From: Pocillopora damicornis
Taxonomy: Eukaryota
Direction: 5' to 3'
Assembly: GCF_003704095.1 (NCBI RefSeq)
Contig: NW_020847369.1
Span: forward strand, 1-64,000
Length of the DNA stretch: 64,000 bases
The number at the start of each line of letters is the position of its first letter. Within the stretch, counting starts at the first letter, position 1. The notes below the pieces were generated by a model. It saw only the letters and a program-made list of their open reading frames with translations, was not told the DNA's origin and searched no databases. Shown here piece by piece: positions 40,488 to 63,945 of this stretch. A program made the translations under genes and the position numbers.

Positions 40488-41096
40488 TTACCCCTTGATC
40501 AACTCCTCAAGGAAGTCTAAATTAAACTCAACTGGTTCAAAATCCGGCTCCGGTTCTTCATCAATCCAGTCCAACCAGGGCAGGGTTGAAAAAGTTGGAT
40601 CAGATCTCGTCCTTGACAATCTTCTTCCAATGTCTTTCCTGAGTTGCTTAAAAGTTGACATGTCTGCGGTTTCTGTCAATGTTTTGGCTGGAGCGCTGAC
40701 CCGGCGTCTTCTTGGGAGATTTTCATTCAGGTTTTGCTCCTTTTTATAAATTTCCGCGATTATTTCTTCTTTTAAAACTTCATTGTCTTCACTCTCCTCG
40801 CTTTCTTCTTCCACGCTTTGCAACTCGGGCCAAGCGATGATCAAAGATGGTTGAGTGTTCTTCCGTTTAGGGAAAATGAGTTCCACATCTTTTTCCGAAG
40901 CGTCTAGTCTTCCAAACGATGTGACCGGTGCACTGATTCTTCTTCTACGCTGAATATCAACTTTCTGCTTTTGCTTCACACCTTCCTCTTCGATTTCCTT
41001 TAGATTTTCTGAAATTTCACTGAACGCTTGTTTCATGAGTACTTCAAAACTCCCTCCATTTTTGCGCATCCTCTCTGAACCTTTTTCGGGCCTCAT
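40488..41096 (-). CDS. Uncharacterised single-exon protein, RRxSAP family member 2 (~202 aa from first ATG)
   Basis: SFEVLMKQAFSEISENLKEIEEE, RRRRISAP, second RRRRVSAPA, KQLRKDIGRRLSRTRSDP, LPWLDW...DFEPVEFNLDFLEE. First ATG at 41096; the track start at 41174 is GTG. Confidence 0.8.
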   Translation of the reverse strand: MRPEKGSERMRKNGGSFEVLMKQAFSEISENLKEIEEEGVKQKQKVDIQRRRRISAPVTSFGRLDASEKDVELIFPKRKNTQPSLIIAWPELQSVEEESEESEDNEVLKEEIIAEIYKKEQNLNENLPRRRRVSAPAKTLTETADMSTFKQLRKDIGRRLSRTRSDPTFSTLPWLDWIDEEPEPDFEPVEFNLDFLEELIKG

Positions 41097-43022
41097 CTCA
41101 AGGAATACTTGAAAAAAGAAAAAACCCAAATGGAATATTTCTAACCACGAAACCGTCTTAGCTAAACGGACCACCCGATTGGAGATAGTTAAGGAAACTG
41201 TCGTATTTTAACGATATGTATGAACTTTGTAGTTTGATTAATGATACGTTTGTCTTTCTTGTGCCTAAAATATCAATGTTTTCATGTAATTACGGCATTT
41301 AATGATCTGTTTAGGCCCCTCATACGCCAAATATCGTCCACCTGACCGGGTGTCGCGTGATCGATCCTTTCGAGTGATGGTGCTCAGATAAATATCAAAA
41401 TTCATCCCGCTGTCTTTTTTTTCGTTCCGTAAAGAACATAATCTCTTCCGTCATACACTTAATGTTGACAATGATATGATAAGATGGAAAATTTTCGTCT
41501 TCTTAAAATTTCGCTGGTTTCAATTTTTTTTTTTTGCGAATCACGCTTTCGTCATTCTTACCGGAGTGTGTAGCGACTATATATTAATGACACTTATTGC
41601 AAATAAGATAATTTTTAATGCAGAATAACTTATCAGTATGAGCAGTTATGAAACTTTCTTTTCAAAAAGCCCGTTTGTTTTAAAAGACGCGCGGTAGAGG
41701 TGGGAAAAAAGATGCGATTAGATACGTGTGTTCGTCGAGGATGACTCACGTTATACGTGTAGTCGCGTGAATCGTTGGTTGTTCATCATACGCCTGAAGA
41801 CTATCAACCCCTGCCCTCCCCCAAGAGTGCTTGCCACGCGACCAAAGTTTTCGATGAAAGCTATCTGACTTAAGTGGGCGGTAAATCGAATATCGATTGA
41901 TTCAATTCTCTGGAAGTTTATGGTGCAAATATTAATCAACAAGCGGTTTAGGAATTAATTACTAGAATTTTATTGAATTTATCAATAATGCAGTTTAACT
42001 AACATTAACATCATAAAACTCAAAGCCGATGACTCTCGATCGAGGATCATTGTGTTAATTATTTATATTTCAGATATTGTACACAAACAAATACAAAAGC
42101 ATGAAAACATAAGCAATATTTTAAAATACCCCTCCAAACTAGTCTAACAGGTTTTTCATTCCCATTTAACCCCTAGTGGTGAGGGTGTAATGCCTTCTCT
42201 CAAACCTTTAAGTCACTTCATATGAGTGCTAAGTTACAAATAATCTGTACTAAAACAGTAAATAATCTTGATATCTTCTTTGCAGCCTTTCGAAATTTTG
42301 TGACTCAGGGAACTCTTATGTTTTGGAATTGCGATGCAGCGTGAATCTAACATGACAACTCAAGTCGACCAAATAAGTGTACCAAACACTAAAAAATTAG
42401 TAGACTAAAAAACTCTGCCGCAAACAAATTTTTGCTATGAAAACAACTTTACTCGCTTGTCACGTGACACGAGTGAAAATGATTCATAATGGACGAAGCA
42501 AGAGTCGCGTGATTTCGTCACATGCTGCAAAAGTGTTACAGTGTAACTAATAATACTATTTTGTTCTCTGCGAAATGTATCTGAATTAAATGTAACTACT
42601 CTTATACCCAGCTCAGTACCTTATTAAATGTTACTCATTAAATATAAATTTAATTTTTAAAAAGGACCTGAACGCTGGCAGTGGAATCATGTACTTATTA
42701 ACTGCTTGGGAGGGTCCAGCAGACAGAAACCACAGAATTGGATTATTTCTGTCAACGTACCGAAAAATTGTCGCAAATTAAATTCTTGACGCGCAATTCT
42801 GTCTGTGCGGTTCCTCGGAAGTGAATATTGCTTACTAATGTATTCCTGAGAACTGGGCAATCGGCGCGCACGAAAAGTATAATATGTCCTGCCTTAAAAA
42901 AAACTGGAGCATGATCTCGTCATGGCCAAGAAGGACTCCACACCGATCTGGCTGCAGTCCTTCATGGGCATTTTGAATCATCAACAACAGCAACGAGTTT
43001 GTAATTAATTTTCATGTTACCC

Positions 43023-43676
43023 TTACATATAGTCATCCAAGAAGCCTAGATTGAATTCAACTGGAATGAAATCTCCCGAAGGCTCCTCCCAGTCACTACA
43101 ATCCATCCAAGGTATCAACGAGTATTTCGAGTCTGAACGTGCGCGAGAAAACTTCCTGGAAATCTCCTTTTTTAGTTGCTTTAAAGTTGTCGTCGTTTCT
43201 GCTGTAGTTCTTGGACTGAGTGCTTTGACGGAACCTCTGACTTGTTGTGTTTTCAAAAGCTTAATTGTCTCTGCTTTTTTGTTGTCCTTCATCATTTCTT
43301 CGATGTAGTCCCAACTCGTGTCAAGCGGGTCACCGTCGACATCCTCTCTATCAAAACTCTGCCATGATGGCGAGATTAACAAAGCTGACTGTGATAGCTT
43401 TTTTCCGCCTCCGTAAAACCCACGTTCCAATTTGTTCTTCAGCTTTTCTGAACCTCCGTACGGTTTGGCTGGTGCACTAACTCTTCTTCGCCGCTTGAAT
43501 TCCATTTTTTCTCGTATTTCAAAATTATTATTTAGGTCTGTTTCTGTCACACACAATGAGATTCCACCTTGATACATTGCCTCCTCTCCAATAGCCTTTT
43601 TTCCGTTCCTGAACTTAGGTAGGTATTGTTCGGCTATAGATAAGAGTAGTGAAATTCGTTGAAACTTTAAAACCAT
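43023..43676 (-). CDS. Uncharacterised single-exon protein, RRxSAP family member 3 (up to 217 aa)
   Basis: RRRRVSAPAK, KQLKKEISRKFSRARSDS, IPWMD...DFIPVEFNLGFLDDYM. Clear paralog of 40488-41096. Start codon uncertain (43676 or 43577). Confidence 0.8.
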   Translation of the reverse strand: MVLKFQRISLLLSIAEQYLPKFRNGKKAIGEEAMYQGGISLCVTETDLNNNFEIREKMEFKRRRRVSAPAKPYGGSEKLKNKLERGFYGGGKKLSQSALLISPSWQSFDREDVDGDPLDTSWDYIEEMMKDNKKAETIKLLKTQQVRGSVKALSPRTTAETTTTLKQLKKEISRKFSRARSDSKYSLIPWMDCSDWEEPSGDFIPVEFNLGFLDDYM

Positions 43677-46600
43677 ATGAACAACGACCCCTTAAATTGG
43701 CGCGCACGTAAAAATGACAAATGTATTACTTTACCTAAGCGACCGAAATACCAGTTGATTCAGTGATAGGGTCAGAAACTGGCATTGTGAAAATACAACG
43801 ATGCCTTACCTTTCCACTAAATTTATCCGCTGCTTCTTCCACTACAGGTTGTGACTCTCAAGCTTCTTAAAATTTTTACAACGATGATTGTAGTTACAAG
43901 CCGTACTATATGCGACTCACTTTGCTACACACGTGACCTACATACGGAGTGCACTTCACGCGATAAACAAGCTGTAATCACGCAATTTCGGCATTAGTCA
44001 CGTTATTCAAACGGCGGACTTATTTGACGGTTGAAGTATGTTATTTTCAAGCGCAAATCGACATCACGCTGTGATCTTTTTCATGAAACACTACTTCCCT
44101 TTTCGATTACTTCAAGGCAAATTACAACAATGATGCAATCGTTGCATAAAAAAAAAAGTTGAGCTGAGTGGATTCAAATAGCTGAAGAAGAGGACGTCGA
44201 GACTCGTCGATCACGAGAATAGTCACGAGGGGAAAAAAATCTTCGATCAAAATAACTTTACTGAGCTTTCTCTTCGGTATTTTGACCTTTTGCCAAGTTT
44301 TTGAGCAGAATTTTAAGAACAAGACTCGAGAAAAAATTTTGAGAAGGAAAAGAATATGCCAGACCTCTTGAATTGCATTCAATTTTAGACCAGAAGTTGA
44401 TAAGTTGTGAACTTTATATGACTAGGATTGCCGACAGGAGAGTAGAGTGAACCATGTGATTCAGCGTCAGTGAAAATAGGGTGTGACGACTGGTCACGGT
44501 AGAGAAATGATTGTGTGCACGATTTCACCGGTGAGCCGAGACAAGCCCACATCGATGTCGCCACAGACGTTGAGATCCCTGTAGGAATTGAAAAGAGCAA
44601 CCCAGTGTCCATTCTTTCGATTTTTCATCCGCTTTCGTCAAGAATAGTGGTGCCGGCTCGCTTATGCTCGCAAACAAAAAAATACTTGAAAGGAATTAAA
44701 CCTAAGCATATGCTATTTCCAACAGTTAAAGAACGATTCCATTGCGCCGGCTAACTTGCCATTTTTCGCTCGTCTTTACTTAGTAAGAGCCAGTGTAACA
44801 GGCTCTTAGGAAAGCTGTTTGTATCGACCATTACTAGTTTGGTGATCGTAAGAGCAAGAATAACTTCATTGATATGAAGAACAATTTGAAGCCTCTTCTT
44901 TGCTTTAGATCGACTGAATGTTCTTACTTTACGTGAAAGTGGTGAACAATGGGGTGTGAAAAGGCCGATGCCCTGACACGTAGCTAGAGACTGACCAGCT
45001 GATCCCAAAATGCTATAACTGGTAATTTGGCATTCTATACAAACTTATCCAGGATAAGTCCTAAAAAATTCTCACTTCTATTTTTATGCCTATAAAACTT
45101 CAAATACATGCAATTTTTCTTCAGTCCTTCGTCATCCATGCTTTGTCAATCATAGACACCACTTATGCTTGCTAGCATAACTTACTCTGCAGGGGATCAT
45201 CTTTAACAACTTCTGCTCATTTTCGATAAAAGAATAAGCTACTTTTGAAAATGTCATAACCTTTACTTTACTTGCTTCTGAAAAGGAGGGGGGGAGGGGC
45301 GCTTTTTCCCCCTTCCCCCCAAAAAAACCTGCCGGGGAGGGGTGTAAACACCAAGGATCGTGATCGGCCTTTAACATCCTTTTTTGCTGGTCCTTTTTTA
45401 CACCTGAGCACGAGCCCGCTTATTTTACCCCTGACCTCTCCTTTAAGAGAGGAGACCCCCACTAAGTAAGGTCTTCTGGAGCAGGGCTTGGTTTTAAATG
45501 CACAAAAACTCCATATTAACAGCGGCTGTTTGTATCTTCTCAGAAAGAACTTACAAAACAAAATACGCTACCAAACAAACCACTGCGAACAGAAAGACAT
45601 GTTATTGTACTTCAGTGTCTTGTACCTATTCATTTGATAACACTCTTGAAATGGACTAAGTCTCTAGACTCATCGCAAATTCTCTCTAAAACGGGCTTCA
45701 AAGTTGAAGATCCGGCGGTACACTCAGAACATATTCGAGCAGCCCCCGCCGGAATTTATTACCGACATGTATTGTGCCGACTCACTTACGGCTGACCTTA
45801 CTGTGGTGCGACCTTTCTTCTGCATACGTTACCACAACCATTAGTTAGCTCGCCTAACTGGTGGTTTGATTAATGTTCTTTATATTACATGCAGACTTCA
45901 AAATTCTCGAATCTGTGACAAATTTGTTCAGTAATTTGTGATCCACAACCCATCCCAGCTAGCTCCAGCTCCTTGTAGAGAGAAATCGTGCACACGAGTC
46001 TAAAAATAAACATCCTTGATGGCAGTTATAAGGCAATTGACGCCGAGAATCATAGCTCAACCCGCGGGCAGTTTATTACTTCATTTAAAAGAAACGAAGT
46101 GATCAACGTCAGTCGCCAGACAAGCTATACAAGAAACCTAGCGAAGAGGTATTCAAACCGATACAATCTGTTGAATGTTTCTAAATTTATCAACTTTTTT
46201 TAGCGCTTGGCCTGTTCTATGCCTCATTGCCCCCAAGAAGTAAACAACAAACCCACCACCTTTGTCTATGATTTTATCATTTTCTAAAAATACATTTTAA
46301 TTTCATCTGCTCTACATACATAAAGCGCCTTTGATCATATAAATGTTAAAGGGCGCTATAGAAGTAAATAAATTATTATCATTATTATTATTATTAGCAC
46401 GAACACCAATTTATCTATTATTGCACATAGTTTTTCACGGTTTCTACGATTTCGAATAACATTTTCATTATGTTACAAGTTTTATATCTTGTTCACAGAA
46501 ATTGTTCAGATTTCTCGGTATATTCTGACTAGAGTGTTCACAAATACATCTTCATCATCAGCCAACCATATCTACCTCTTCACCTGCCTACGAAAGTTAA

Positions 46601-46699
46601 ATCTAGTTGAATTTGTGCCGTAGGTTTCACTTTGTAGTTTTTCCTTCAATCTCGTACGCTCGATAATCATAACAATATTGACACTTGATTAAAGAAACG

Positions 46700-46906
46700 A
46701 ACTCTCTTCCCTAAAGAGCAGAGCACTCCTCACAGTTTCATCAAAGCTCTTCGTCAAAAGTTACTAGATATTCCTTTTAGCAAAACCTCCTAACGCCTTA
46801 CTAAAGAAAAAAACTCTCTGACTTACGGAGCAAAGCAATCCTCAAAGTTTCACTAAAGTTCTTCGTCAAAAGTAACTGGTAATTTCTTTTAGCAAAGCCT
46901 CCTAAC
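46700..46906. repeat. Two-copy ~110 bp tandem duplication
   Basis: agca.tcctca.agtttca..aaag.tcttcgtcaaaagt.act...ttttagcaaa.cctcctaac occurs twice. Confidence 0.75.
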
Positions 46907-47044
46907 ATAGGCTGGTTCTTAACTCATCGAATAAGCAAAACGATTGAAGATTAAGTTGTGTAACTTTGCCCTGTTAAAGCTCTCGAGTGCAAATGCAAAG
47001 TTTCATCTCAGATGGGAAAACAATGATCTCACTTATAGAGCTAC

Positions 47045-47200
47045 GTCCTTCGCTCTGACGAAGGGCTAAAACCCGAAACGTCTGCTTGAACTCTTAACAG
47101 TGGTCAATTTATATTTTCAACTCAGTTGATGAAGCTAAATTATGATGTAACACCCCACCAACGTCGCATCACACTTTCTTTAGAAACTTACCCCATTATT
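47045..47200 (+). mobile_element. Penelope-type short repeat carrying a minimal type I hammerhead ribozyme core
   Basis: CTGACGA (47055-47061), extra A, stem II GGG/CCC, GAAACGTC (47075-47082). The rest is homologous to 2386-2544. Confidence 0.6.
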
Positions 47201-47614
47201 ACTGCCCGTTATCAAATTGGAGAAAAACTTACAAAAATGTTACGATAGGATGTTTCAATACTAGAACCACAAATGAATCAAGCAAGGGCGAAATAATTTC
47301 AAGTTATTTATATTATGATGCAAGGTTGTTCATCAGTCTTCCATAGCCGTAAGCTAAAATTTCGCCGGTGGGTTAACTTTGAGTGAGGTAAGCCAAACTT
47401 TACTTTACATCGTTGAAAACTTAGCATTATTCTAACGGGAGATATCTCGCCAAAGATCTACGCCCTCTATAAAGATGGGCCCTGAAACCTCCAACTATCC
47501 TCGCAGTTCCAGGGTTTGTACAAGTCGATGGTCTTGATTCAATGGCGGCAGTGGTCTATTTTAAAACCCGCCCTGTCCTTCCGATTCATCACGGAAACCC
47601 TTTGAAAGGCTGAC

Positions 47615-47887
47615 TCAGTCGTGAAAAGGTGAAGACAATGACCTGTCAAATTCAACTTGTTTCTTTGGTTCTTGCAAAGATTCCGACGATCGTCTCATCA
47701 AAGCGGCAGGGGCACTACCTCTCCTTCTCTCGAGATCAATTATTTTCTCTCGTTGTTTTTTATTGTCTGCTTTGATCTCCTTGAGATTCTGAAATATTTC
47801 ACTGAATGCATCGCTCATGGCCTTTTCAAAACTTGTCCCATCGCTGGGGTTGATTTGTGTCTGTTTCTTGGCCTTGTCTTTGTTCAT
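47615..47887 (-). CDS. Uncharacterised single-exon protein, RRxSAP family member 4 (~90 aa)
   Basis: SFEKAMSDAFSEIFQNLKEIKAD, RRRGSAPA, FDRSLSSP. First ATG at 47887. Lacks the acidic C-terminal module. Confidence 0.7.
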   Translation of the reverse strand: MNKDKAKKQTQINPSDGTSFEKAMSDAFSEIFQNLKEIKADNKKQREKIIDLERRRGSAPAALMRRSSESLQEPKKQVEFDRSLSSPFHD

Positions 47888-50012
47888 GACAATGTAATCG
47901 AAAACTGAGCGAAAATCTTGTCGAGAGAACTGTAATCTGTCACTGCAAGTGTATTTCAAAGCAGCCAGCTTCACGCCTGAAAACTTTGAAATGGTTTGGC
48001 TTGTAAAACTGATCTTTAGCTTAATTTATTCTTTATGCCGACAATATTCACAGCCAATCGAATTCCACTTCGAGCATTTATCAAGTCATGGCTTGTGGCA
48101 TTTAGACATTTCAGATGCATGTCTTTATTTCACGCCTCCTTAAATTTGAATTCGTTCTTCTTCTAGAAAAACTGCCCCAGGCACAAGCAGTGAGTTTATT
48201 AATACAACTTATTGAATATGGAAAAGTTTCTGATCTTCTAATTAAAACACACTCAGCTAAATGCAACCTAATTAGATTGTTAAGGCATTTGAATCCGTGC
48301 AGAAACACGATATGACAAGTACACTTAAAAACCAATTAAACATCATTTTAGTCGAGTACGTACCGCATCAGAATCTTCTCGTGCATGGTTCAGTGTTTTT
48401 ACTATCTATGCATGGCTATGAACCCTACAATTCCACTATTTTGCTTCTCCCTAGAACGGCTTTTGTTCCTATACAACCAAGAAGACAACAGTCCCTACTT
48501 CACCTCCCGAACCCAATGTAGCCATTTTGTCTGCAGAATATTCCTCCCGTTGCCTTGGCTACCACACATGCATTGACAAAATTTATTTTGGGTTCGCTTG
48601 TGAAGGAGTACGTAACAACATTATGTAGCAACAACCGCACTATGTAGTTTTTGACGATGAAATTTAGTCACCTCCAAAGTTCGGCCGGACTTCTTAAAGA
48701 AAAAATATCCAAAGTGGGAGGAATAACAAACAGACTTTAAAAAGATATGCAAATATTTGTTCGGGAGCACAAAAGCGCGACTATACGTGGGTCATTTAAG
48801 ACTTGACTGACTTGACCGGTTACCTCCGCATATAAGACCTCTTACTGCCCTCTGTTTAGCCTGTGGAAAGGCTCCCGCGCTTAGCTCTGTCTTTACCGCC
48901 TATCACATCATCGTCGACCATCGTCGACAGCCGTGCATGGAAACAGTTATATAATTCCCTGCTTGATGGCCTGTCAGATAAAGTGATTGATATCACTTGT
49001 AAAGCATAGGGCTATCACGCAAAAACAACGCCGAAAAAATTAACTTGATACGGATGATAACTAATCGAATGGCGATCAGTTAGCCACAAATGTTATTTTT
49101 TAGAACGATAACGCGAAATATCGAGTCGCTTGTAAAGTTGAACACGTTTTCTAGTCTCAATTATTGTCCGATAATCGTTCATTCTGATAAATGGACTGAT
49201 GTTGTAAGAAGTAAGGACGTGCACTTTAGGCAGTAACTTTGAATCAGTCTACCATGCAAAAGAATACAACATATTAATTGAAAAAGGAAATGGAAAGTTA
49301 TATCAACGTTTAATTGCGATCCTCAGTGCTCTTTATGGAAACTGTTAAACGAAGATATTATGTTGCAAGTGATTATTCACGACACCCACACGGGTGCGGT
49401 TCAAGCCATTAACGCGTACAAGAGGTGGGTTTACAACCCGCCGGGAATGAATCTTAACTTATTATCAAGTAGCTACTTAGAAGTTTCAAACTACTCAAAC
49501 TCCGAACCTCCGCGCGACGAACGCGAGACTTGCACCCGAATATATTGTGGAGGAAGAAGAATGTTTTGTTATCGTTTCTGATTGGTGTATTCGGTTCCAT
49601 ACTCTTAAATACCATCAATATGCATAAGCTGAGATTATTGAAGTTATCACGTTCTTGAATTTCGAAATCATTTCAAGACATATGTCAGTATTTGAAAGTT
49701 CATCTTGACAAACTCGTTGCTTATTGATGGCAGCTTTATTATTTTTTTACAGAAAGACAACGGCATCGACTTTTTTAACTGGGAAGAGAGAGGCTCTGCA
49801 ATGGCGTGCATCAAGAATTTTGCACCATCGCACAGCGCCGTATAGACGTTAATTACACTTCACGTTTTGTAGAGTTTGAAGGACATTAATTTGTAACTAA
49901 TGGACCGAGGTGAAAGCTTAAGCCTAAAAACTGACAGGGTTGATATAAAAAGTGAATGCGGATCATAACAGCTTGAGGAAAGTTGGCTCACCTTAAACTT
50001 TGAATCTACGCC

Positions 50013-51445: not shown

Positions 51446-52440
51446 AGATTATAAACTGTTCATATTCTCTTGAGGAACCATATTAGAAAGAATTCGCCGT
51501 CCCCTCTATTGTCGTAATGGATAATGATAGGCTAATTATATCGGCCAATCCGGGAAAAAATATAGGAACATTACCAGGAGTTAGAAATGAGAGCCTGATG
51601 GATTTTTTGAAGATGGCCTCGAGCGCTGGAGACATGGAAGACCAAATGGGAATTGACCTCGAATCACAAGATCATAGGAAATTACATAGGTGTTTGGCAA
51701 GAATGCGGCTGCCTAGTGGGGCTCGCTCTCATTCATTTATTCAATTTGCTGAGTTTTTTTGTGTCGTTTTGTCTGCTTACAAGTTCCTGCCTCTCCCGTC
51801 CCCAACGATACAACTTAAGTCACCATGGAAACCCCCATTCCACTTCCACCAGCGGAAATCAAATTTAATTTGGAATGTTACTTACTCAAGACATACTTGA
51901 CACTTCAAAGATGTCATGCCGGGAACGTTAATGAAAACTTGGCTCTGAAAACCTGTTAATGTTGTGCTAAATCATCTAAGCGTAGCCGAACATTACAGTC
52001 ACACAATGAAACTCACGGCGTTATTTACTATGTCTTGTTTAACTATTTTTCTAGACAAAACAATATAGACTCCAATCCTTTGCTAAGCGAGAACTGAATG
52101 GTTTTACTGATGCATTCCAATGGTTCGCATGCATCCACGCACGATCGAGTAGCGCGCGTTTGGTGGGCGTGATGTTAACATAATCTGGCTTAATCGTGAC
52201 TGTCATGTTTAATTTGATATGGGAAATATTCAGTTATGGGAAGTATTCGTGTTCTTAAATGCTTTACAATATTTGAAAAGACTTTGTTATCACTGATTTA
52301 GCCTGAATTCAAAGACTGGCAAACAGAAGTTTTAAAGTTGACACGTGCTGACAAAAGGTTATAAAGAGTTAATTAGGATTCAAGTTTTGGTTACTAGTGA
52401 GAGATAAGGGTCAGGTGCTTCTTCAACAGTGCGTAACTTA

Positions 52441-52782
52441 ATGCAGAACTTTGAGACTATGGACGCAAAAGATCGAGTACGAAAGAAAAGCAGCTCTTCC
52501 TTTGATTATGAAAAGGAAATGGAAAAAGCTTTGGGCATGATTTTTCAAAATCTACGTGACATAGAAGAGAGTCGATTTCGGATGGCTTCTTATCAGTGCG
52601 ATGAACACCAGATGGCAAAGCCACTAAGTGTCTCTGAACAGCCTTGCTATATTGCAGACTTGCCGGCACAAAAGACAGATCGCGAATTTCAAGAAGTTCA
52701 CAAGGAACAGGTTACAAATGTTAAGTCCAGGAGAAAGTTACCATCTGTACCAGTTTCCAAAGGAAGGATTTTTCCCTCTTAA
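52441..52782 (+). CDS. Uncharacterised single-exon protein, family member 6 (~113 aa)
   Basis: RKKSSSSFDYEKEMEKALGMIFQNLRDIEES helix and C-terminal RRKLPSVP. Upstream CACGTG (52342) and TATAAA (52360). ATG at 52441 or 52459. Confidence 0.7.
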   Translation: MQNFETMDAKDRVRKKSSSSFDYEKEMEKALGMIFQNLRDIEESRFRMASYQCDEHQMAKPLSVSEQPCYIADLPAQKTDREFQEVHKEQVTNVKSRRKLPSVPVSKGRIFPS

Positions 52783-54113
52783 ATAAATATGGAATATGGA
52801 CTGTTTTTGATCGGGGACTGAAAGATGGCTTTGTTAGGGCAGACAGAAAATAAGACGTCAGGATACGGTGATATACATGCTCAGTGCTGCGAGGCCGGCG
52901 CACCGTAGTTTCGGCGATCGACTGTTCGCTGGCATCAGAGTTCTTGAGGAAAGCAGGAAGAACAAAGGCAAGTTAAGACGAAGGCAAGAAATGGAAAGTA
53001 ACATTTTTGTCAGTTTTTAAGGAATAAGAACAGCCGTCTTAATTACAGTACGGCCTTTATGTTTAATCTTACGTGATAGAATTTCTCAGTACAGAATTAC
53101 AATCGAAAACGCTGAAAAACCGACATTCCAATCTTTTAGTTCCTTAACTAGAAACTGGATGTCAAAAACTTTGTCGGGGGTAAATTAACGTTCAAATTAC
53201 ATATTGTAAGTTAATTGTTATAAACTTTACAGCAATACGTCTAAAGTAAACATTAATAACCTGAAAAATGCCACAATGTTTACGTACCATCAACGGATTA
53301 TACGCCTACATTTAGCAGCAAATAAACATGTAATAAGTTGGTGTAAATATTGTTGTAGATAGAGTAATTGTGTTTTTTTTCTGCCAAAACTAATTTGATG
53401 TCATTTCGTATTTATTATGTTTCATGATTTAGCTCCATAAAGTTACTAAATCAAGATAACATGGCTTACTTTTCAGTTCAAAGAGGTGGTAAAGTAAACA
53501 GATTGTAGAAAGCGTTAATTAATTACTGCCGGAAGAGATTTAAAGAAGAGTAGACTCGCTATGACGCTTAATCAAGTGGAAGAATTTTAGTTAAGCACAC
53601 CGATTAATTTGTCAAACTGTGTCATTGTTCAAGATATTAAAAATAATGATGTCAATAAGAGATTAAAACGAGACCTCCACGAATATACATTGATGATTTC
53701 CTGTTTTTGTAGTTTTCCCGGATCACGCAAACTGGAAGGCAATAACACTGGATCTAAAACAAAATTATCTGAACTAACATCATAAGAATTGTATAACACT
53801 GGACAGTAAGGAGTATTAGCAATGAGTTTAGCAGTGAAAGGGTTAAGTATAATAAGCTTCTTGGAATGGAGGAATACAAAGTAAGCAAGATTACTTCTTG
53901 CCTATTATAGAATTCCGTCATTATTTTTATTTTTAAATAAAGCCATCCATCCATCCATAATCAAAGCAGGAAAAAGTTTGACGGTTAAAAACTGCTAAAG
54001 CTGTCTCAACAGTCTATGAATGCATTTTAATAAACGGATTACCATGTCTCCACACAAATTTTTCATAAAAAAGTTTGTCACCAATGAAAAAAGAAAAAAA
54101 CGTCTGGAGTCTT

Positions 54114-57100
54114 TTATTCGTTTTTATTTCTGTGGAGTTTTTTCTTTTTGGGGTTTTCCCAGACTCGTTCATTTGGTTGTGGCTGACGTCTAGGAGGTAA
54201 TCTCCAGGAAGCTTCTTCGGCTGCCTTCCATTCTTTGTAAGCTTGCCTGTCAAGAAAAATAGCAACAAAAACATTAAACAAACTCAAAATATTTATTCAC
54301 AATCGCACACACCGTTCAAGGATCTAAAAGAAAAAATGAACGGGTTAGCATTTGAAGTTAGTGCCAGTAAGTGAATACAAGTCGATTTAAAAGCGCTCAT
54401 TTAAGTGATAGGCGAAAACCTTTGGACCGTCCATTGACTTAATATCTTAGCTAAGTGTTTTTCTTAATGTTTCGAATTTCTCTACTTACCATCTTCGCCA
54501 GATCGACTTTACAGGCCACGAAATCAGCATGTAAACGGTAACCACAACACAGTTCAGAACCAAGACGGTCGAGATCGTATAAGCGGTTTCACGCCAGGTC
54601 GAGAAAACGAGGTGGCTCTGAATCTTGATAACATGTTCTGATGACAAAAAACCAAAAATATAGTATGAATGTTATCGACGCGGAGCAATTTTCATAACGT
54701 ACCGATGAAACAACTAAAAGTGAGATAATATCTTGGGTCGTTATCACACAGGAATATTTTCAAGGTGTATTTTCAAGGGGGTAGTCCCACGAAATACCCT
54801 CAGAGGGTACTGCTCGGGGTATTTCTCATTGGTCTTTCTACTCACCGTGAACATATTCATTGTAAAACTGAGTGACAACTTCAATTGTTTCCCAAAGGTA
54901 TTCAAACACAGGTTCAATTGGTTTACAACTCCTTTCAATCACTTTCCAGATCCATTCCGCAGACCATTTTGCTTCCATCCAAGTCCACTCAGCTAACCAT
55001 CTAGATCCACTACATGTTTTCCCAGCTGACCATAAAGCAATTTTCTGTGAGATCTCGGCCAACCATATAATCTTTTCCTTTACCCATTCCGCCATCCCCA
55101 ACGTTCCATTCCAGATTAGATGTGGCAAATATACGATATTGTTCCAAATCGATTCAGCCAACCAGAAACTACCGCTGTACATCCCTTTGGCCAACCGTGT
55201 GATCCAAGAAACAATCCAGTCCACTAAACCTGTCAGTCCACTCCAAATTTCACAGACTTGATCCACCAACCCTAAGAGTCCATTCCAGATTTTACCGACC
55301 AAACCCAATAACCCTTTCAGTCCTCTCCACATTAAACCAGCCATAGTTCCAATTCCGTCAGAACTCTTTTCCCATGCTAGAGCCAGTTTTGTGACCGTAA
55401 AGCTCCATGTGTTTTTCATCATCATCATTGCCTGTGTGATCAGTCCTGGTGCTTTACGTTTGTAGACGTTGTACTTTGAACAAGTCATGTTCCGAGGATA
55501 TTCTGGAAGTTCCTTGCAATTAAGGATCTGAAAGTAAAAAAAGGGGGGGGGGGCAAGTGAGTTTTAACTTTCAAAGACCTCTCGAGTATATTTTAACCCG
55601 CATTTCAAGTTACCTATTTGTTTTTCATGAAACTCGGGGAGGGGGGAGGGGGGAAGGGTAGGGGTTCTTGGTAGGGATTCCCGCCCTGGCTTTTCAAGTT
55701 CAAGTCTGACTATTTAGTCAAGCCAAAGATAAATAATTCATTTCAAGAGTTGTAAGTGTAAAGTTTAGTGCTGTGTCCGCGTTGATCTCCGAGTACTTAA
55801 ATTTATCGGATGTAACGTGATCGCAATCATTTTTACAGGATGAAGAGCTAGTTTTTAAGGTTGCCGCAGTGAGTATCATTTCTCAAAACCCGTAGACTGC
55901 ATAAGGCATGCAGGCCTTAGATAAAAAAGCTTGATTGTTTTATTTGTGCAACGTTCAGTGTAACCTGTAACTCACAATTTCCCCCACCTGTATTTTAAAA
56001 CCGATACTGACTATATTACCACCTTTATTTGCATCATCATTATGCATAAAATATACTTACGAAGCAGACAATACAATACTAATACAATCTACAATAAAAC
56101 ACTTCAGTTAAGTCGCGTTGTTTATCACTAATTACTAATTACTCTTTTTGCGCTACTTTACATTACTAATGGAAGGTACTTGCTCTGATTCTTACATTAC
56201 TAAAAACCGTAGCGTAAAAAACAGCAACTACAGAAAAACAACAAGAAATAGAGAGGGAAAGAAAAGAAGTAAAAGTAACCAAAATATATCAATAGATTAT
56301 TAAATAAGCGCTGGTATATTTTGATTACCTCTCTTTCTCTATTATTCCTTTGAAGTTGACAGACAAATAATCACGATACGCTCTTGCAGTACACTTGAAA
56401 ACCTCACACGGCCAAGGACCTTTAAGAGGCTAGGTCACGATTTACGCATGCGCATTTAGACCTTAGGAAATAGTGGCGCTAACGGGCTTTTTATAGCCTT
56501 TGCCATCGAATTTCATACAATCTTTTCTGTCCTGGGATGTTAGCATCGTTAAAAGGTCTAAGGTATGACTCAAATCAAGGATACGTGTTGGGCGTTGTCA
56601 AGAGACAGTGAGTATGTTGAAGTAAGCATCTTATCGAGAGGCTATCCACATTTACCAGACTCAAAACGTTCCACTTTCTAAATAGTTTATAATTGCTTTA
56701 ATTTGCCTGTAACTGTTGGATACAAATAAAGTTGTTGCTTTTGTTGTTGTTGAAAAAATCTACCCTTTGGGACGGCAAATACTTACCGTTTCGTTACCGT
56801 TAGCTTACACAAGGGATCGATGAACTAAATACACTCTTTCCGGGCCATTCGTTGTTTTACGTTTAACATCAATTACAATTACCAATAGTTTGGTGATGGT
56901 GAGCTATGAAATTTTCATTTCGAATCTCCACCTATAAACTTGATGTCAACAAAATGAACACAGGAAACCGTAAACTAAACACGTTGTAAAATACCTCTCT
57001 CAGTTTAGGTAAATCCTTCCCATGGCCTTCAGCGCTTTGGTCTTCGGAGAAGACGAGTTTCATATCCAGATCCAGAGACGACATTTGAATCCTTATCGCA

Positions 57101-58495
57101 TATTCCTGTACCAAAGTCAAAGTTTCATGAAAAACAAATAGGTAACTTGAACTGCGGGTTAAAATATACTCGAGAGGTCTTTGACAGTTAAAACTCACTT
57201 GCCCCCCCCTTTCTTTTTTTACTTTCAGATCCTTAATTGCAAGGAACTTCCAGAATCAAATTGTAGTCAATTGTAGTCAAAAAGAAATAAACCCCTACCC
57301 TTCCCCCCTCCCCCCTCCCCGAGTTTCATGAAAAACAAATAGGTAACTTGAAATGCGGGTTAAAATATACTGGAGAGGTCTTTGACAGTTAAAACTCACT
57401 TCCCCCCCCCCCTTTTTTTTACTTTCAGATCCTTTATTGCAAGGAACTTCCAGAATCAAATTGTAGTCAAAAAGAAATAAACTAAATTTGCTCTTCAAGC
57501 TTTCAGATCTTAAATCAAATTTCACTCTAACCCCAAGTTCAATCTTAACCCAGCTTTGAACAACTCGGCCCAGACTGTTAAGTAAAATTCAAAATGGCGA
57601 AGTCTTAAGTCCAAAATTCGAAAACATTCTTTTTGTTGTTTTCTTTTCTTTTAACTCTCGTCAAATCCGGGAGGAATTTGTTCCTCTTTTTACTTAAAGT
57701 ATGCCTTATAAAAACAATTACATCATTCATCAGAGTTATTTTTCTGTAATTAATCAACCTTATCGTTCCAAGTTCCGACCACGGACGTTTCTTCTTTAAA
57801 ATCTTTGAGAGATAGCTCTCGCCATTCATTGACTTGAAAATTGTTTGAGAAGAGAAAAAAATAAAATATAGTTATCACCAGCAATATCATCAGCATAGCG
57901 TGTTGCTATTTTGCATTGCAAAATGTGGATGATATGAAATATAGCCGTTTTGAAAATATGAAATTTTTTCTTTGGTGATTTGCAACAAAACCCTTTGGGT
58001 CAAACAAAGTAAAAACAAAAAAAGAAGAAGTAAAACAGTGGATTATCTTAATGAGTAAGAGGTGACGGAGCGCGTGCTTCAAAAATAACTTAGAGCCGTT
58101 TAGTGCGCACGTGCTCTCGGCGCTGGCTGGCGCGTAATACCAGCTGAATTACTATGGCAACTGCAAACTCGTTTGTAACTTGCAAAAGGTTTTGAAAAGT
58201 CTGAAAAATTAACCGTTGGCAAAGCACCCCTTGAGTTTTTGTCAAGGCTGTTCTGAATATTCTCACTTGTAGGAAATGAACACCCGGTAAAACAGTTATT
58301 TCCTTGGGGAAAGAAAGAGGCTTAAAACTGTTTCATTAAAACGTGGCGGAAAAATTTTGGTGCGGGGAAAGTAGAAACCCTTGAAATCCTCTTTATAAGG
58401 GAATGAATCTTACCGTCTTGTTTCACAGATTGTGCAGCTTTCGTCAACGAAAGCAGTAATGCCGACGCAATGAGCAATTTCATTATTCTCTTCAT
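54114..58495 (-). CDS. Uncharacterised predicted type I membrane protein with Trp-rich 11-residue amphipathic repeats, 6 exons, ~409 aa
   Basis: Exons 58495-58414 (signal peptide MKRIMKLLIASALLLSLTKA), 57832-57759, 57105-56995, 55527-54846 (repeats), 54637-54490 (TM: TISTVLVLNCVVVTVYMLISWPV), 54246-54114 (basic tail, TAA). All GT-AG, phases compatible, 1230 nt open. Confidence 0.75.
57121..57456 (+). repeat. Two tandem, near-identical inverted copies of 55500-55666
   Basis: 57290-57456 and 57121-57256 are reverse complements of the intron 3/exon 4 junction (gaaatgcgggttaaaatatact.gagaggtctttga.agttaaaactcactt...ttttactttcagatcctt.attgcaaggaacttccagaat). Confidence 0.9.
57457..57573. mobile_element. 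Half of a MITE-like repeat abutting the inverted duplication
   Basis: Ends in ...cttaacccagctttgaacaactcggcccag, a TIR type related to the ggactaattgttcaaa start at 39471. Only one end is present. Confidence 0.45.
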
Positions 58496-58721: not shown

Positions 58722-60098
58722 ATGGCGGATAGTCCAGAAGCAAAGTTGATGAGAGGACTGGAGTCACTAGATGTTAAAATTTCACAGACTCTATACGAGG
58801 TATTATCGCTCAACATTTCCGTCAGTTAAGGGTTCTGATGTTAAAATGTACCCTCTATGGTTGTAGATAAAAGAACTGGAAGTTACAAACCACGAACTCA
58901 GCTGTCTACAACCGAAAAAGGTTTGTAATTCAGCTGTATATTCGTCTACGACAGTGTTTCCCCTTTTTGCTATGTTGACAAGATATGTCTTATTCGTTTT
59001 ATTTAAAGAGAGTATTCACAAGGCAAGGACCTGGGAATGTGTTTTTTCTTTCTGATCGTGCACTCGTGGTTGGCCAGTTTAAAAGTAAGTATAAACGCGC
59101 GTAACTTGTTAAGATTCCTGTTAAGTTTTACAAAACTTAACAGGAATCAACCCTTCTACCTCTAAGATCTGATTAGTTGAAGAGTGCTTAGATCACCCAG
59201 TCACCTGATGGGTTTGTCAGCTCTCAACACACGTTGGAAGATTTGTTTTCTTAGCCCATAATTTCCTTCTTCAAGTTATTTCCTACTTAAGTAAGATCAA
59301 CAGAGAGTTATTGTACTTTTATACACAGAGAAATTTAATAATCCTTTTCAGTGATGTTGTTAATTAATTTAAGGTGAAATAAACTTCTTGTAGATTGAAA
59401 TTTGGGCGAGTTTATCATCACAATGACCATACATGGCTTCAATTAATGCCTATCATGATACAAGTAATCAAAACAATCATAGCATACTATATGCAAAGCT
59501 TCCTTTATTTACAGAATGGTTTCAACCTGAAAATGAATTTAAACAGAATTTGAAAGTACCTGAGCAATTATACTGTCTAATTATAAAGATAATGGAGTAG
59601 AATAGTCTCTTTGACTTCATCTTTATCAGGCTTAGATTTGTTGATATTCTAAGTAGAAGTTGCACATTAATCACATTTGAAAAATGAATTTTTGTCCTAT
59701 CTTTCTGTGAATGACTACCTCAGGTTGTTAACCCTTTAATTCCCAGAAGTGATTGGGAGGTAACCTCTCCCTATAATATCCATACACCGTTCAGCAAACA
59801 GGTAATGAGAATTTTAAAACTTATCATGTAGAAGATGTTATTATTGATCTAATACCAAATTCTCTAATTGATTGAAAAGGAAATGTATAGCAGCTAGAGA
59901 GGAGAATTAAAAATCAGATCTTGGGAGTTAAAGGGTTAGGGATTGAGAGAAGTTTGACTGCAAATAGAGACACAAAAGTGAGTTGAGCTTTGTTTGCAAA
60001 TGTATGAGTTGAAGTATTTTGTTTATATTCCAGAAAAGCTTGAAGATGCTAAGAAAGATTTAGAAGAGCTTAACAGGCAAAAGCAAGATGCTGTCTGA
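58722..60098 (+). CDS. ASDURF: ASDURF-like prefoldin-type microprotein, 4 exons, 90 aa
   Basis: Exons 58722-58799, 58867-58920, 59009-59084, 60034-60098 give MADSPEAKLMRGLESLDVKISQTLYEIKELEVTNHELSCLQPKKRVFTRQGPGNVFFLSDRALVVGQFKKKLEDAKKDLEELNRQKQDAV. Coil-hairpin-coil beta-prefoldin layout. ELS.L...R.V......N[VI]FFL.DR matches my recollection of vertebrate ASDURF. Confidence 0.75.
59728..59938. mobile_element. TTAA-flanked MITE in ASDURF intron 3
   Basis: ttaacccttta...ttaaagggtta termini. Same subfamily as 11431-11633. Confidence 0.8.
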
Positions 60099-61188: not shown

Positions 61189-63945
61189 ATGGTTTCTGGC
61201 GATGTTGAAGCTGGAAACTCACTATCTTCTGAATCGAAAATGGCTCCGTATGTTACAGATAGAAAGAAATTAATAGTGTGTTTCTTGGGAATATTTATAT
61301 CGTACTTTTACTACGGAATTATACAAGAGAAAATGTGAGTATTGGTCACCTAACTATGAGATAACTTTCTTCGATCTTTCACACGCAAGTCTTCAACTAC
61401 TTTTGAAAAAAATTGATTAATTTCTAGGAATTTCATCGCCATTCACTCATCAAAGAACCAGTGCGGTATTCCTTCTTCTTAAATTTTCCCAATCGCACGA
61501 ACCAATGTCTGTATTTTTTAATCTCTTTACAATGATAGTTCGTAGTTTTATACCAATATTCAATGGTTGACTTCCTAATTGTGATTACTCTCGGGAATTG
61601 TGGTTTAAAGTTACGTAAGATATTTTTGTTGAACTGGGATCCAAGGCTTATGAGTTCTTTTGTGATCAAGCCTAGAATATTTCTCGAAGTCTGAGGATAG
61701 CCTGTTTAAGGTTTTGTCCTTTTATTTTCATGTCCTAATTCAATATACGTGTTATATTCTCGGACAGAACAAGAACATCTTATGGCGAAGACAAAGAGAA
61801 ATTTGTGTATGCTCTCTCATTGGTCTTTGTTCAGTGCATTGTGAATGCACTTTTTGCTAAAACAGGTAGGTTGACAGTGTTTCATGAAGTGAAAGATAGT
61901 TGCAGTGATTTTTGCCAAAGGAACGAATGTGTACTTCAAATATTTTTGCATCTGTGATCCATTAACCTTTCACTCTTGGGATCGAAAATCAATTCTTCAC
62001 TTTGTTAACAATATATTTATTTCAATTTTTGCCCGGAAAATGTGGTTTTAAGTAAAAAAAAATATATCTTCAAATGTTTATTTCTTATCACCTCGCTTGA
62101 AAATTTTTTAATACTCTCGAGGATAAATTCCTCTTTTTATCACTTTATTTATTAGAGAATTTCCACACAAGGTCAAAAATTTCTGATTAATAAGAAAACT
62201 CTCCTCATGGATTTATCAGTCTGACTCACCAGTTTAGAAAAATGCTAAACAACCAAAATAATCAGGAGGATGGTGAACTAATTATGCTGCTCTTGATCTG
62301 TTTTAGTTATCCAACTGACGTACAGAAATGAAGCTAAGGATACAACTCCATTCTGCTGGTATGGGATCTGTGCTACAACCTATATTGGTGCAATGCTGGC
62401 CAGTAATAAGGCTCTTCAGTGGGTGAACTATCCAACTCAGGTTAGTATAAATTCCTCTTGATCAATCCTTGCAATACGATCGCTTATTTTGTTTCAGTGA
62501 CTCAGTTTTCATAGGCTGAGAAAATATTCACTTTGATGCAAAAAATGTTGCTTGAAAAAGCCAGGTTGCAAGGGTCACCATATATTTCAAATTTAATCTG
62601 ATAAACTCTAATAATTCTTTTTACTATTTTCCATGAAGTGAAACTTAATCATAATTTTGTTTTGCTGGTAGGTCTTAGGGAAGTCATGTAAACCTATTCC
62701 AGGTGAGTGATAACATAGAGCAGGTATTGTCATTGATTAGGAATGAATTGATGTACATACTAACTTTAATTGCAGATAAAATATGACAGTTTAGAAAGAG
62801 GAGAATTTTGTTGTAGTTTAAATTGATCTGAGTCGAAACATTTTTTCATGGCTGTATTTGTGATAAATTGTCACAATTCTTAATCAAAGAAAGCTACAAA
62901 CTAACCTTATACCTACCAATCATGACTGAACTATGCCACTTGAGTCTGACAGCCAATAACATCACAGCAAAACTGACCAATCAATTCATACAAACTGGAC
63001 TAAGAACATAAGACTGAAAACAACTATTCAGTTGACACTGATGATGACTTCCACTCAGGTTGTCAAAATGTCAGTCACCACCACTGAAAACAGTCCTTCT
63101 TAGGACTACACTTGTCTGGATGATCAAACTACACTATTACAAAATTAATCTAGTTTTGTTTCTAATTTGAAGACTTCATTATTTGATGAATGACACAGGA
63201 ATACTCAAAAACATGTTTCTGAATGCTCCCAATTGGAGTCAGGCCAGTTAGTGGTTTGGATGCTCTACCAGGGAGCTTTAGGTATAATCATAGATCAGTA
63301 ATGAATTGAGTGAGCTGTAGGAGCGGGGTGGCAGGCTGTGCTGTCCATGTTGACAAACTTCCTGCATACTGCTAGGAAAGGAATGTTGATGTGTGTGCAT
63401 TGATGATGTTAGTGAATATTGTTAGATTTTAACCCTGGTTTTTTGGTTTAAGATGATGGTATTCAGGAAATGATGCGATTTGGGCATTCTTTTGAGTATA
63501 CCAGTGTTTTATTCACTGAATAACATTGTCTTTCACTAAAATCACCAGGCCTAAAATCAACCATTTTCATTCATATGTTTCTAATTGTCTTTCAGTTATG
63601 ATTCTGGGAGTTCTTCTAGCAAGGAAAAGATATCCCCTTCTGAAATACCTATGTGTTTTTCTTATTGTTTGTGGAGTAGCTCTGTTCATGTACAAAGAGG
63701 TGAGGTGATAAGCTGTAAATATAGAAAAATATTACAAACTTGTCACAAGAGTGGAATTTAAATATATCTGAGGATGCAAGCCTCAGACTTTTGGATATCT
63801 ATAACAACTATCTACAACATTTTTCTGACCAAGTTCAAAACTTACCAAAAGAAGACTAAATTTTCAAATTGGTGATTAATTGTAGAATAAGAAACAAGTA
63901 TCAAATGACAGTGGAAGCTGGATTGGATTTGGAGAACTCCTCTTG
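61189..63945 (+). CDS. SLC35B1: Solute carrier family 35 member B1 (UAA family ER transporter), 5' part; continues beyond window
   Basis: Exons 61189-61334, 61768-61865, 62307-62440, 62672-62702, 63596-63699, 63886-63945. Motifs [23 protein letters not shown]...[75 protein letters not shown]. Confidence 0.93.
62900..63141 (+). mobile_element. Penelope-type terminal-repeat remnant with decayed hammerhead core, intronic
   Basis: gaca-CTGATGA-t-gac...gtc-AAAATGTC-agtc at 63034-63076, followed by cagtccttct.aggactac...ggatgatca and preceded by ccaatca-rich sequence. Confidence 0.55.

Follow-up and report, generated by a model that had tools for sequence, protein, structure and literature searches.

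An unannotated family of stony coral proteins with a predicted membrane anchor and a length-variable, Trp-rich 11-residue repeat

Helices built on an 11-residue period occur in lipid-binding proteins. The 3/11 lipid-binding helix is defined in PMC5889406, and apolipoproteins and synuclein acquire such helices upon contact with lipid; in Plin4, binding increases with the length of the helix (PMC5889406). The repeats closest to the one reported here are those of the phage tape-measure proteins (PHROG 58, 305, and 5493; e.g., Lactobacillus phage JNU_P10, QHJ75132.1), and the Plasmodium tryptophan-rich antigens (TRAgs) provide a further comparison: they are helical proteins of the surface, rich in Trp, that form an expanded multigene family, and one member binds lipid (PMC10502043). 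In corals, duplicated families of dark genes are frequent (PMC13044578). Here we describe a gene of the coral Pocillopora damicornis, located on the minus strand at positions 54114 to 58495 of a 64,000-nucleotide stretch of contig NW_020847369.1 (the window), which codes for a Trp-rich 11-residue repeat, a predicted membrane anchor, and a basic tail. The gene belongs to an unannotated, expanded multigene family of stony corals with a length-variable repeat. Its features are the following.

54114..58495, minus strand: whole gene of six exons, with the ATG at 58495 and the stop codon ending at 54114.
58414..58495, minus strand: exon 1, start codon and predicted signal peptide (residues 1 to about 22, 58495-58430); intron 1 spliced in one of four runs, N-termini of the relatives also hydrophobic.
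57759..57832, minus strand: exon 2, beginning of the predicted beta-meander head (RNA joints and translation; strands predicted at a predicted local distance difference test score, pLDDT, of 50-60 only).
56995..57105, minus strand: exon 3, remainder of the predicted beta-meander head plus a variable linker (RNA joints, translation, model, and alignments).
54846..55527, minus strand: exon 4, Cys pair C93/C105, conserved N-x-T sequon (N102, 55491-55483), and the whole repeat (RNA joints and translation).
54925..55407, minus strand: Trp-rich helical segment, residues 130-290 (161 amino acids [aa], 19 Trp), with a strict 11-residue register at 55245-54946.
54490..54637, minus strand: exon 5, the only transmembrane helix predicted (residues 334-357, 54587-54516), with a basic stretch next to the membrane (RNA joints and hydropathy).
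54114..54246, minus strand: exon 6, conserved basic tail, predicted to be cytosolic (net charge +9), with a PKKKK cluster at 54152-54138, and stop codon (RNA joints and alignments).

The six-exon model comprises 1230 nt, with all introns of the GT-AG type and in phases 1, 0, 0, 1, and 2, and yields a protein of 409 aa with no internal stops. The listing of open reading frames (ORFs) held one long minus-strand ORF, at 55563-54838, which corresponds to exon 4 of the larger gene. Each of the five introns was confirmed by RNA contigs, which came from four runs of four studies (two recorded as RNA and two guessed to be RNA). Thus, the junction check bears out the coordinates and the count of six exons that an earlier note had proposed from the letters of the window. 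Introns 5, 4, and 3 (54246/54490, 54637/54846, and 55527/56995) were spliced in three of the four runs, intron 2 (57105/57759) in two, and intron 1 (57832/58414) in one, and no splice joint was found anywhere in the gene in run X5. The Logan protein P0007, also of 409 aa, matched the model at 398 of 409 residues, with 11 differences and no gaps. The stored P. damicornis protein pdam_00005747 (P0002, 307 aa) starts at residue 103, lacking the first three exons and the signal peptide, and was identical (100%) to the gene model across the aligned portion of exon 4. The gene is therefore real: it is spliced from six exons and codes for an open protein. Exon candidates at 56825-56787 and over 19 nt ending at 56329 were dropped, since RNA splices 55527 straight to 56995.

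Two observations concern intron 2. At 57121..57456 on the plus strand it carries the sequence of the gene's own intron 3/exon 4 boundary (55500-55666) twice more, inverted and in tandem (136 and 167 nt, 96-97% identical); the sequence was found at three places in genome G000, all inside this gene. In the pre-mRNA, these copies could pair with the exon 4 acceptor and mask it. Near the same intron, runs X9 and X14 showed a second, non-canonical joint (57107-57764) with three extra letters, which may be an allele, a paralogue, or an alignment artefact.

The 11-residue period was seen at both protein and DNA levels and, in the protein, was far above chance. Lag-11 autocorrelation over residues 126-316 gave a z value of 9.9, matched by none of 1000 shuffles; five relatives gave values of 7.3-19.6, again reached by 0/1000 shuffles in each, and the autocorrelation of exon 4 DNA peaked at 33 nt. 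All eight repeat units quoted in the earlier note are present in the protein. Its estimate of about 12 hendecads held as regards the period and is refined here to a segment of 161 aa, or 14.6 hendecad lengths, of which nine hendecads (residues 184-282) lie in strict register, preceded by two 14-residue steps. The hydrophobicity spectrum peaked at 3.62-3.67 residues in 6/6 proteins. The helical segments, in which Trp accounts for 9-17% of the residues, contain few or no prolines, and the structure model shows a continuous helix. We infer that the repeat adopts a 3/11 helix.

The family consensus of the unit, W-N-G-[LV]-x-W-L-A-[ED]-x-I, was obtained from 116 units of 15 proteins with a profile seeded on W-[NSDT]-G units, so that the frequencies of those residues are partly circular. 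When the unit was placed on a 3/11 wheel, positions 1, 4, and 8 formed a narrow polar stripe, with Trp 0 and Trp 5 at its edges and the remainder apolar or small. Across the 116 units, positions 0, 3, 5, 6, 9, and 10 were apolar (mean values of 1.0-2.0), and only positions 1, 4, and 8 were polar; the strict-register part of the window protein showed the same layout. The hydrophobic moment was high only at approximately residues 146-208 (0.49-0.65) and 281-316 (0.43-0.57).

The rest of the protein points to a single-pass arrangement. Residues 1-22 resemble a signal peptide, with a basic start and an uncharged core of 12 residues (15-23 residues in seven of eight relatives and 12 in one). For residues 29-72, the structure models predicted a short beta-meander with low confidence. 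The Cys pair carries the motif Y-x-x-N-x-T-C, whose N-x-T sequon, ahead of the repeat, was retained in 16 of the 17 listed proteins; it was also missing at that place in L020. One strong hydrophobic segment, residues 334-357, is followed by a net charge of +4 within 15 residues. By hydropathy and charge, a single transmembrane helix with a positive-inside tail was found in 9/9 full-length proteins; the charge ranged from +3 to +6 after the anchor and from -1 to +1 before it, and every tail ended with a K-[KR]-x-[KR] cluster. In the same nine proteins the summed insertion cost was at least +4.2 for every repeat window, versus -1.6 to +3.5 for the anchor. A multi-pass topology was rejected on account of this unfavourable cost, which also disfavours the suggestion, made in the earlier note as an alternative, that the repeats are embedded in the membrane.

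Given the hydropathy, the positive-inside charge bias, and the conserved N-glycosylation sequon, we infer that the protein is anchored in the membrane once and that its repeat faces away from the cytosol (type I topology). Charge bias and sequon are in agreement with the lumenal or extracellular position originally assigned to the repeat, and translation, hydropathy, and charge with the overall order of N-terminal region, repeats, transmembrane helix, and basic tail. The two structure models were of low confidence (pLDDT of 51 for the full-length protein, with a predicted template modelling score [pTM] of 0.25, and of 44 for the head); the full-length model was most confident at residues 351-380 (pLDDT of 76-87).

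In G000, 12 and 32 matches to exons of the gene were obtained, and 12 further genomic stretches were fetched from them. L011, L017, and L020 hold open six-exon models with phases identical to those of the window gene, and four of the five junctions of L020 (555 aa) were spliced in run X1. L012 shows five exons, and its sixth probably falls within a gap of the assembly. In L013, exon 4 is frameshifted as assembled here, the P. verrucosa relative P0086 being intact, and stop codons are present in L014, L018, and L019. The stretch L020:2972-4129 (G000:C469) contains a near-perfect run of about 20 11-mers in a 313-aa helical segment, spliced in RNA, and is thereby the paralogue most suitable for biochemical work. 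L016 (G000:C1939:162000-171900) contains two convergent copies of the second subfamily and displaced exon pieces around assembly gaps, a possible local duplication or misassembly.

Repeat length varied widely within the family. The helical segment measured 90-313 aa, or approximately 8 to 28 hendecads (17 rows scored, plus two more without the end motif), and was exactly 165 residues in four close relatives; several of the length differences are multiples of 11 (111/144, 127/138, and 137/313). Among close paralogues, identity was 40-43% in the repeat, 64-74% in the head strands, and 77-88% in the tail. The ratio of nonsynonymous to synonymous substitution rates (dN/dS) between the window gene and L011 was 0.26 for the head, 0.56 for the repeat, 0.26 for the anchor, and 0.14 for the tail, with ranges in this subfamily of 0.26-0.36 for the head and 0.55-0.61 for the repeat. 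The pair L017/L020, for which dS was saturated, gave different values (0.63, 0.24, 0.47, and 0.11, respectively), and therefore only the signal of the tail is consistent. Across the family, conservation is highest in the basic tail, predicted to be cytosolic. The multigene nature of the family, its variable length, and the constraint on its tail are features beyond those of the earlier note.

A rough tree separated two clades, each with Pocillopora and Stylophora sequences, and one Oculina clade; only these three broad clades were used, as repeat removal was imperfect and four of 19 rows were excluded. A phmmer search of 1.84 billion representatives returned 27 matches. The 18 looked up gave as named members Pocillopora damicornis, P. 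verrucosa, P. meandrina, Stylophora pistillata, and Oculina patagonica, all of them robust-clade corals. Stylophora proteins of the family include XP_022787286, XP_022782617, XP_022799454, and XP_022795306. No named member was found in Acropora, Porites, or anemones, which is weak evidence, since the profile search gave 11 proteins and missed known members.

No known family accounted for these proteins, in concordance with their initial description as unrecognised. Pfam gave no match at the cut-off for exon 4, 20 family members, 11 head regions, or three further proteins; the Perilipin, Apolipoprotein, and Synuclein profiles were passed by 0/20 members, the best result being an E value of 0.32 for Synuclein in one of the 20. 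NCBIfam gave no family in 6/6 proteins, and the best E value in a search of PDB sequences was 1.1, not significant. In the ESM Atlas, two stored relatives had no feature match, with a TM score by query of at most 0.34. The full-length model found no match at an E value of 0.001 in PDB or BFVD, a result that, with a model of low confidence, does not show a new fold. The head model, likewise of low confidence, gave a best Z score of 4.4 over about 48 residues, to a generic beta-meander, and no match in BFVD. The gene and protein identifiers were found in no paper by literature search, supplements such as the dark-orthogroup tables of PMC13044578 and single-cell marker tables falling outside its scope. 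Topic searches, judged from listings, gave no paper on this coral family, and the part of PMC13044578 covering the first half of its Results makes no mention of it. Within the searches named, the family is previously undescribed and fits none of the families tested; it is an orphan family with an unusual repeat design.

The likeness to phage tape-measure proteins, pointed out in the earlier note, was recovered in the PHROG and phage searches over the repeat only. PHROG matches to tape-measure proteins reached E values of 2e-4 for P0007 (best match confined to residues 148-275) and 1e-6 for L020. P0068, a relative with a clean repeat, matched 180 phage records with E values down to 1e-11; the best rows listed were tape-measure or tail genes, and the best 20 of the 180 were confined to residues 46-216, within the repeat. 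Tape-measure and coral proteins have in common an 11-residue period with a Trp marker, a W-N-G-[ILV] start, a variable copy number, and occasional longer steps (see also PMC3271669 and PMC5099701). The units of the coral and of four phage proteins share W-N-G-[ILV] at positions 0-3, often Ala at 7, and Ile or Val at 10. In contrast to the tape-measure unit, the coral unit has a second Trp and an acid at position 8, is more hydrophobic (mean of 0.74 in 116 family units versus 0.56 in 74 tape-measure units), and has a lower moment. Beyond the repeat there was no similarity: the coral gene is eukaryotic and of six exons, with signal peptide, one anchor, and basic tail. The Trp- or Phe-marked 11-residue repeats of a tape-measure protein are thus present in the window protein, whereas a phage tail module is not, the gene being a spliced host gene amid spliced host genes.

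One might ask whether an ancestral coral acquired the repeat exon from a phage tape-measure gene, or whether the resemblance is convergent. The whole repeat does lie in a single exon, the unit start and positions 7 and 10 are shared, P0068 matches its 180 phage records, and only 23 of 14400 class-preserving permutations reached the observed coral/tape-measure profile score, a test biased by the choice of the four phage proteins for their likeness to the coral repeat. Similarly, the ENA protein P0040 (787 aa) carries the same double-Trp unit as the corals and has weak tape-measure matches. However, the matches are restricted to the repeat, P0007 had no phage record at an E value of 0.1, and viral contigs held no relative of the head; phage units lack the second Trp and the position 8 acid, the flanking genes resemble ordinary spliced host genes, and the paralogues share the six-exon plan. 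Convergence is the simpler origin, and we consider phage capture very unlikely. As regards P0040 itself, its 11-mer is almost identical to the Oculina-type coral unit; it belongs to no Pfam or NCBIfam family and had no relative in viral contigs. Its unit profile, in which units were counted twice, was left out of the comparison.

The 11-mer helices of perilipins, apolipoproteins, and synucleins belong to soluble proteins with no type I anchor. They share with the coral repeat a long repetitive 11-mer period, read as a 3/11 helix (PMC5889406), and in this respect the analogy drawn in the earlier note stood. In the window protein, the 11-mer period was accompanied by a spectrum in the 3/11 range and by a moment that is high in only part of the segment. 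In other respects the analogy is loose: aromatic residues make up 0.6% of the Plin4 helix (PMC5889406) versus the 9-17% Trp of the coral segments, and the coral polar face takes only 3 of 11 positions, unlike that of perilipin-type helices. Like the TRAgs, the coral proteins form an expanded multigene family and are Trp-rich and, by prediction, helical and at the surface; no match to the tryptophan/threonine-rich domain was found in Pfam or PDB sequences, and the full-length model, too uncertain (pLDDT 51, pTM 0.25) to speak for or against a three-helix BAR-like bundle with buried Trp, gave no TRAg fold match.

The explanation that we tentatively prefer, though we would not grant it an even chance, is that of a type I membrane glycoprotein whose Trp-edged repeat of about 160 residues forms one long 3/11 helix half embedded in a lipid surface, the tethered protein serving as a coat or scaffold; by analogy, its mode of action would most likely be that of the 11-mer amphipathic-helix proteins. 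Head and repeat would enter the secretory pathway by means of the signal peptide, and the repeat would fold as a 3/11 helix on the lumenal or outer side, lying in the lipid surface. In each 11-mer, positions 1, 4, and 8 would form the polar stripe, Trp 0 and 5 would sit at the lipid-water boundary, and the rest of the circumference would be apolar. The number of repeats, variable among family members, would set the strength of binding or the area coated, and the conserved basic tail might couple to a cytosolic partner or to acidic lipids, or determine localisation. A lipid-surface helix is favoured because 6 of 11 positions are strongly apolar, with the Trp pair at the would-be interface, and because the pattern is retained across free variation in sequence and length. 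A plain coiled coil, by comparison, would bury some four of the eleven positions and leave both Trp exposed.

Several results weigh against a lipid-surface helix. Class A amphipathic helices carry interfacial lysines, and the coral repeat, nearly charge-neutral, lacks them. The moment was only 0.12-0.40 in the double-Trp part (residues 200-289) and 0.29 for the family unit versus 0.49 for tape-measure units, a modest value because the polar stripe is narrow and the rest apolar or small. The interface energy was mildly favourable, -0.06 per residue here and -0.11 to -0.23 in three relatives, values that overlap those of four tape-measure segments (+0.11 to -0.14) and therefore are not specific evidence of lipid binding. 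The repeat itself contains a further sequon, N229, which would require that face to be exposed to solvent, and the seeding of the unit profile tells on the same side. Known Trp-rich designs also serve other ends: the Trp-marked unit of tape-measure proteins is described as a chaperone anchor on a ruler (PMC3271669 and PMC5099701), and in the TRAgs the Trp are buried in a three-helix BAR-like bundle, the solved domain having 18% lysine (PMC10502043).

The main alternative, possible but rather doubtful in our view, is a hendecad coiled-coil stalk engaged in protein-protein contacts, a ruler holding the beta-meander head off the membrane or spacing two membranes, as a receptor, adhesion molecule, or lumenal spacer. 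With a helix rise of 0.15 nm per residue, the stalk would measure 13-45 nm. The hendecad core has a 3-1-3-4 spacing, which positions 3, 6, 7, and 10 match; moreover, four close relatives are fixed at 165 residues, the nearest known repeats are rulers, and in one subfamily the head is more constrained than the repeat (0.26-0.36 versus 0.55-0.61), with the strongest constraint on the tail, a receptor-like pattern. Nevertheless, two Trp and one more apolar position per unit would be left exposed, and the head was not the more constrained part in the second-subfamily pair (0.63 versus 0.24, with saturated dS). We regard as unlikely that the repeat disrupts or fuses membranes, inserting as oligomers into the membrane opposite (that of a microbe, gamete, or vesicle) to form a pore lined by the polar stripe, or being cleaved to amphipathic defence peptides. 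The wide apolar face and narrow stripe of polar residues would be compatible with helices bundled in a bilayer, residues 146-208 combine strong amphipathicity with a local positive charge, the family has expanded and has broken copies, and channel formation in liposomes has been reported for tape-measure proteins (PMC5099701). The insertion cost, though, was unfavourable in every repeat window, the net charge of the repeat is about zero, the alignments show no conserved cleavage site, and no dN/dS above 1 was found in the repeat. A nuclear-envelope or endoplasmic reticulum protein, with the tail as a nuclear localisation signal and the lumenal helix shaping or spacing the envelope, has a slim chance. 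The K-[KR]-x-[KR] cluster resembles classical nuclear import signals and closes the tail, the most conserved part, in 9/9 proteins; basic tails are also frequent in surface proteins, however, where they bind acidic lipids.

Whatever its function, a truncated "uncharacterized" gene model becomes a defined, testable family. A membrane-tethered, lumenal, double-Trp 11-mer helix would be a new design compared with the soluble, aromatic-poor (Plin4) ones, and the natural lengths of about 8 to 28 units make a ready series for learning what such helices measure or coat. If lipid handling in the secretory pathway is its role, the family would be relevant to the packaging and movement of lipid in corals. 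As a long shot, robust-clade corals may have evolved membrane-anchored "tape measures", possibly from a captured phage repeat, in which the number of hendecads matches the size of the lipid compartment coated or spanned (e.g., the symbiont-containing vacuole, secreted lipid bodies, or egg lipid) and is read out via the conserved tail.

Other features lie around the gene. From 58722 onward, on the plus strand, a spliced gene (joints 58797-58865 and 58916-59005) stands head-to-head with the window gene, 227 nt from its ATG, an arrangement that suggests a shared promoter. On the other side, at 53000-54113, one RNA contig extends from exon 3 past 53000 and overlaps the likely 3' untranslated region of a convergent plus-strand gene (ORF end at about 52782); contigs cannot tell whether this is one transcript. 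Several ORFs at 40488-48025 and 52408-52782 share an R-R-x-S-A-P motif and a stretch like AFSEIFQNL, apparently a local family of related unannotated genes. Finally, plus-strand exons at 61240-63700 read like a nucleotide-sugar transporter, presumably of the SLC35B1 type.

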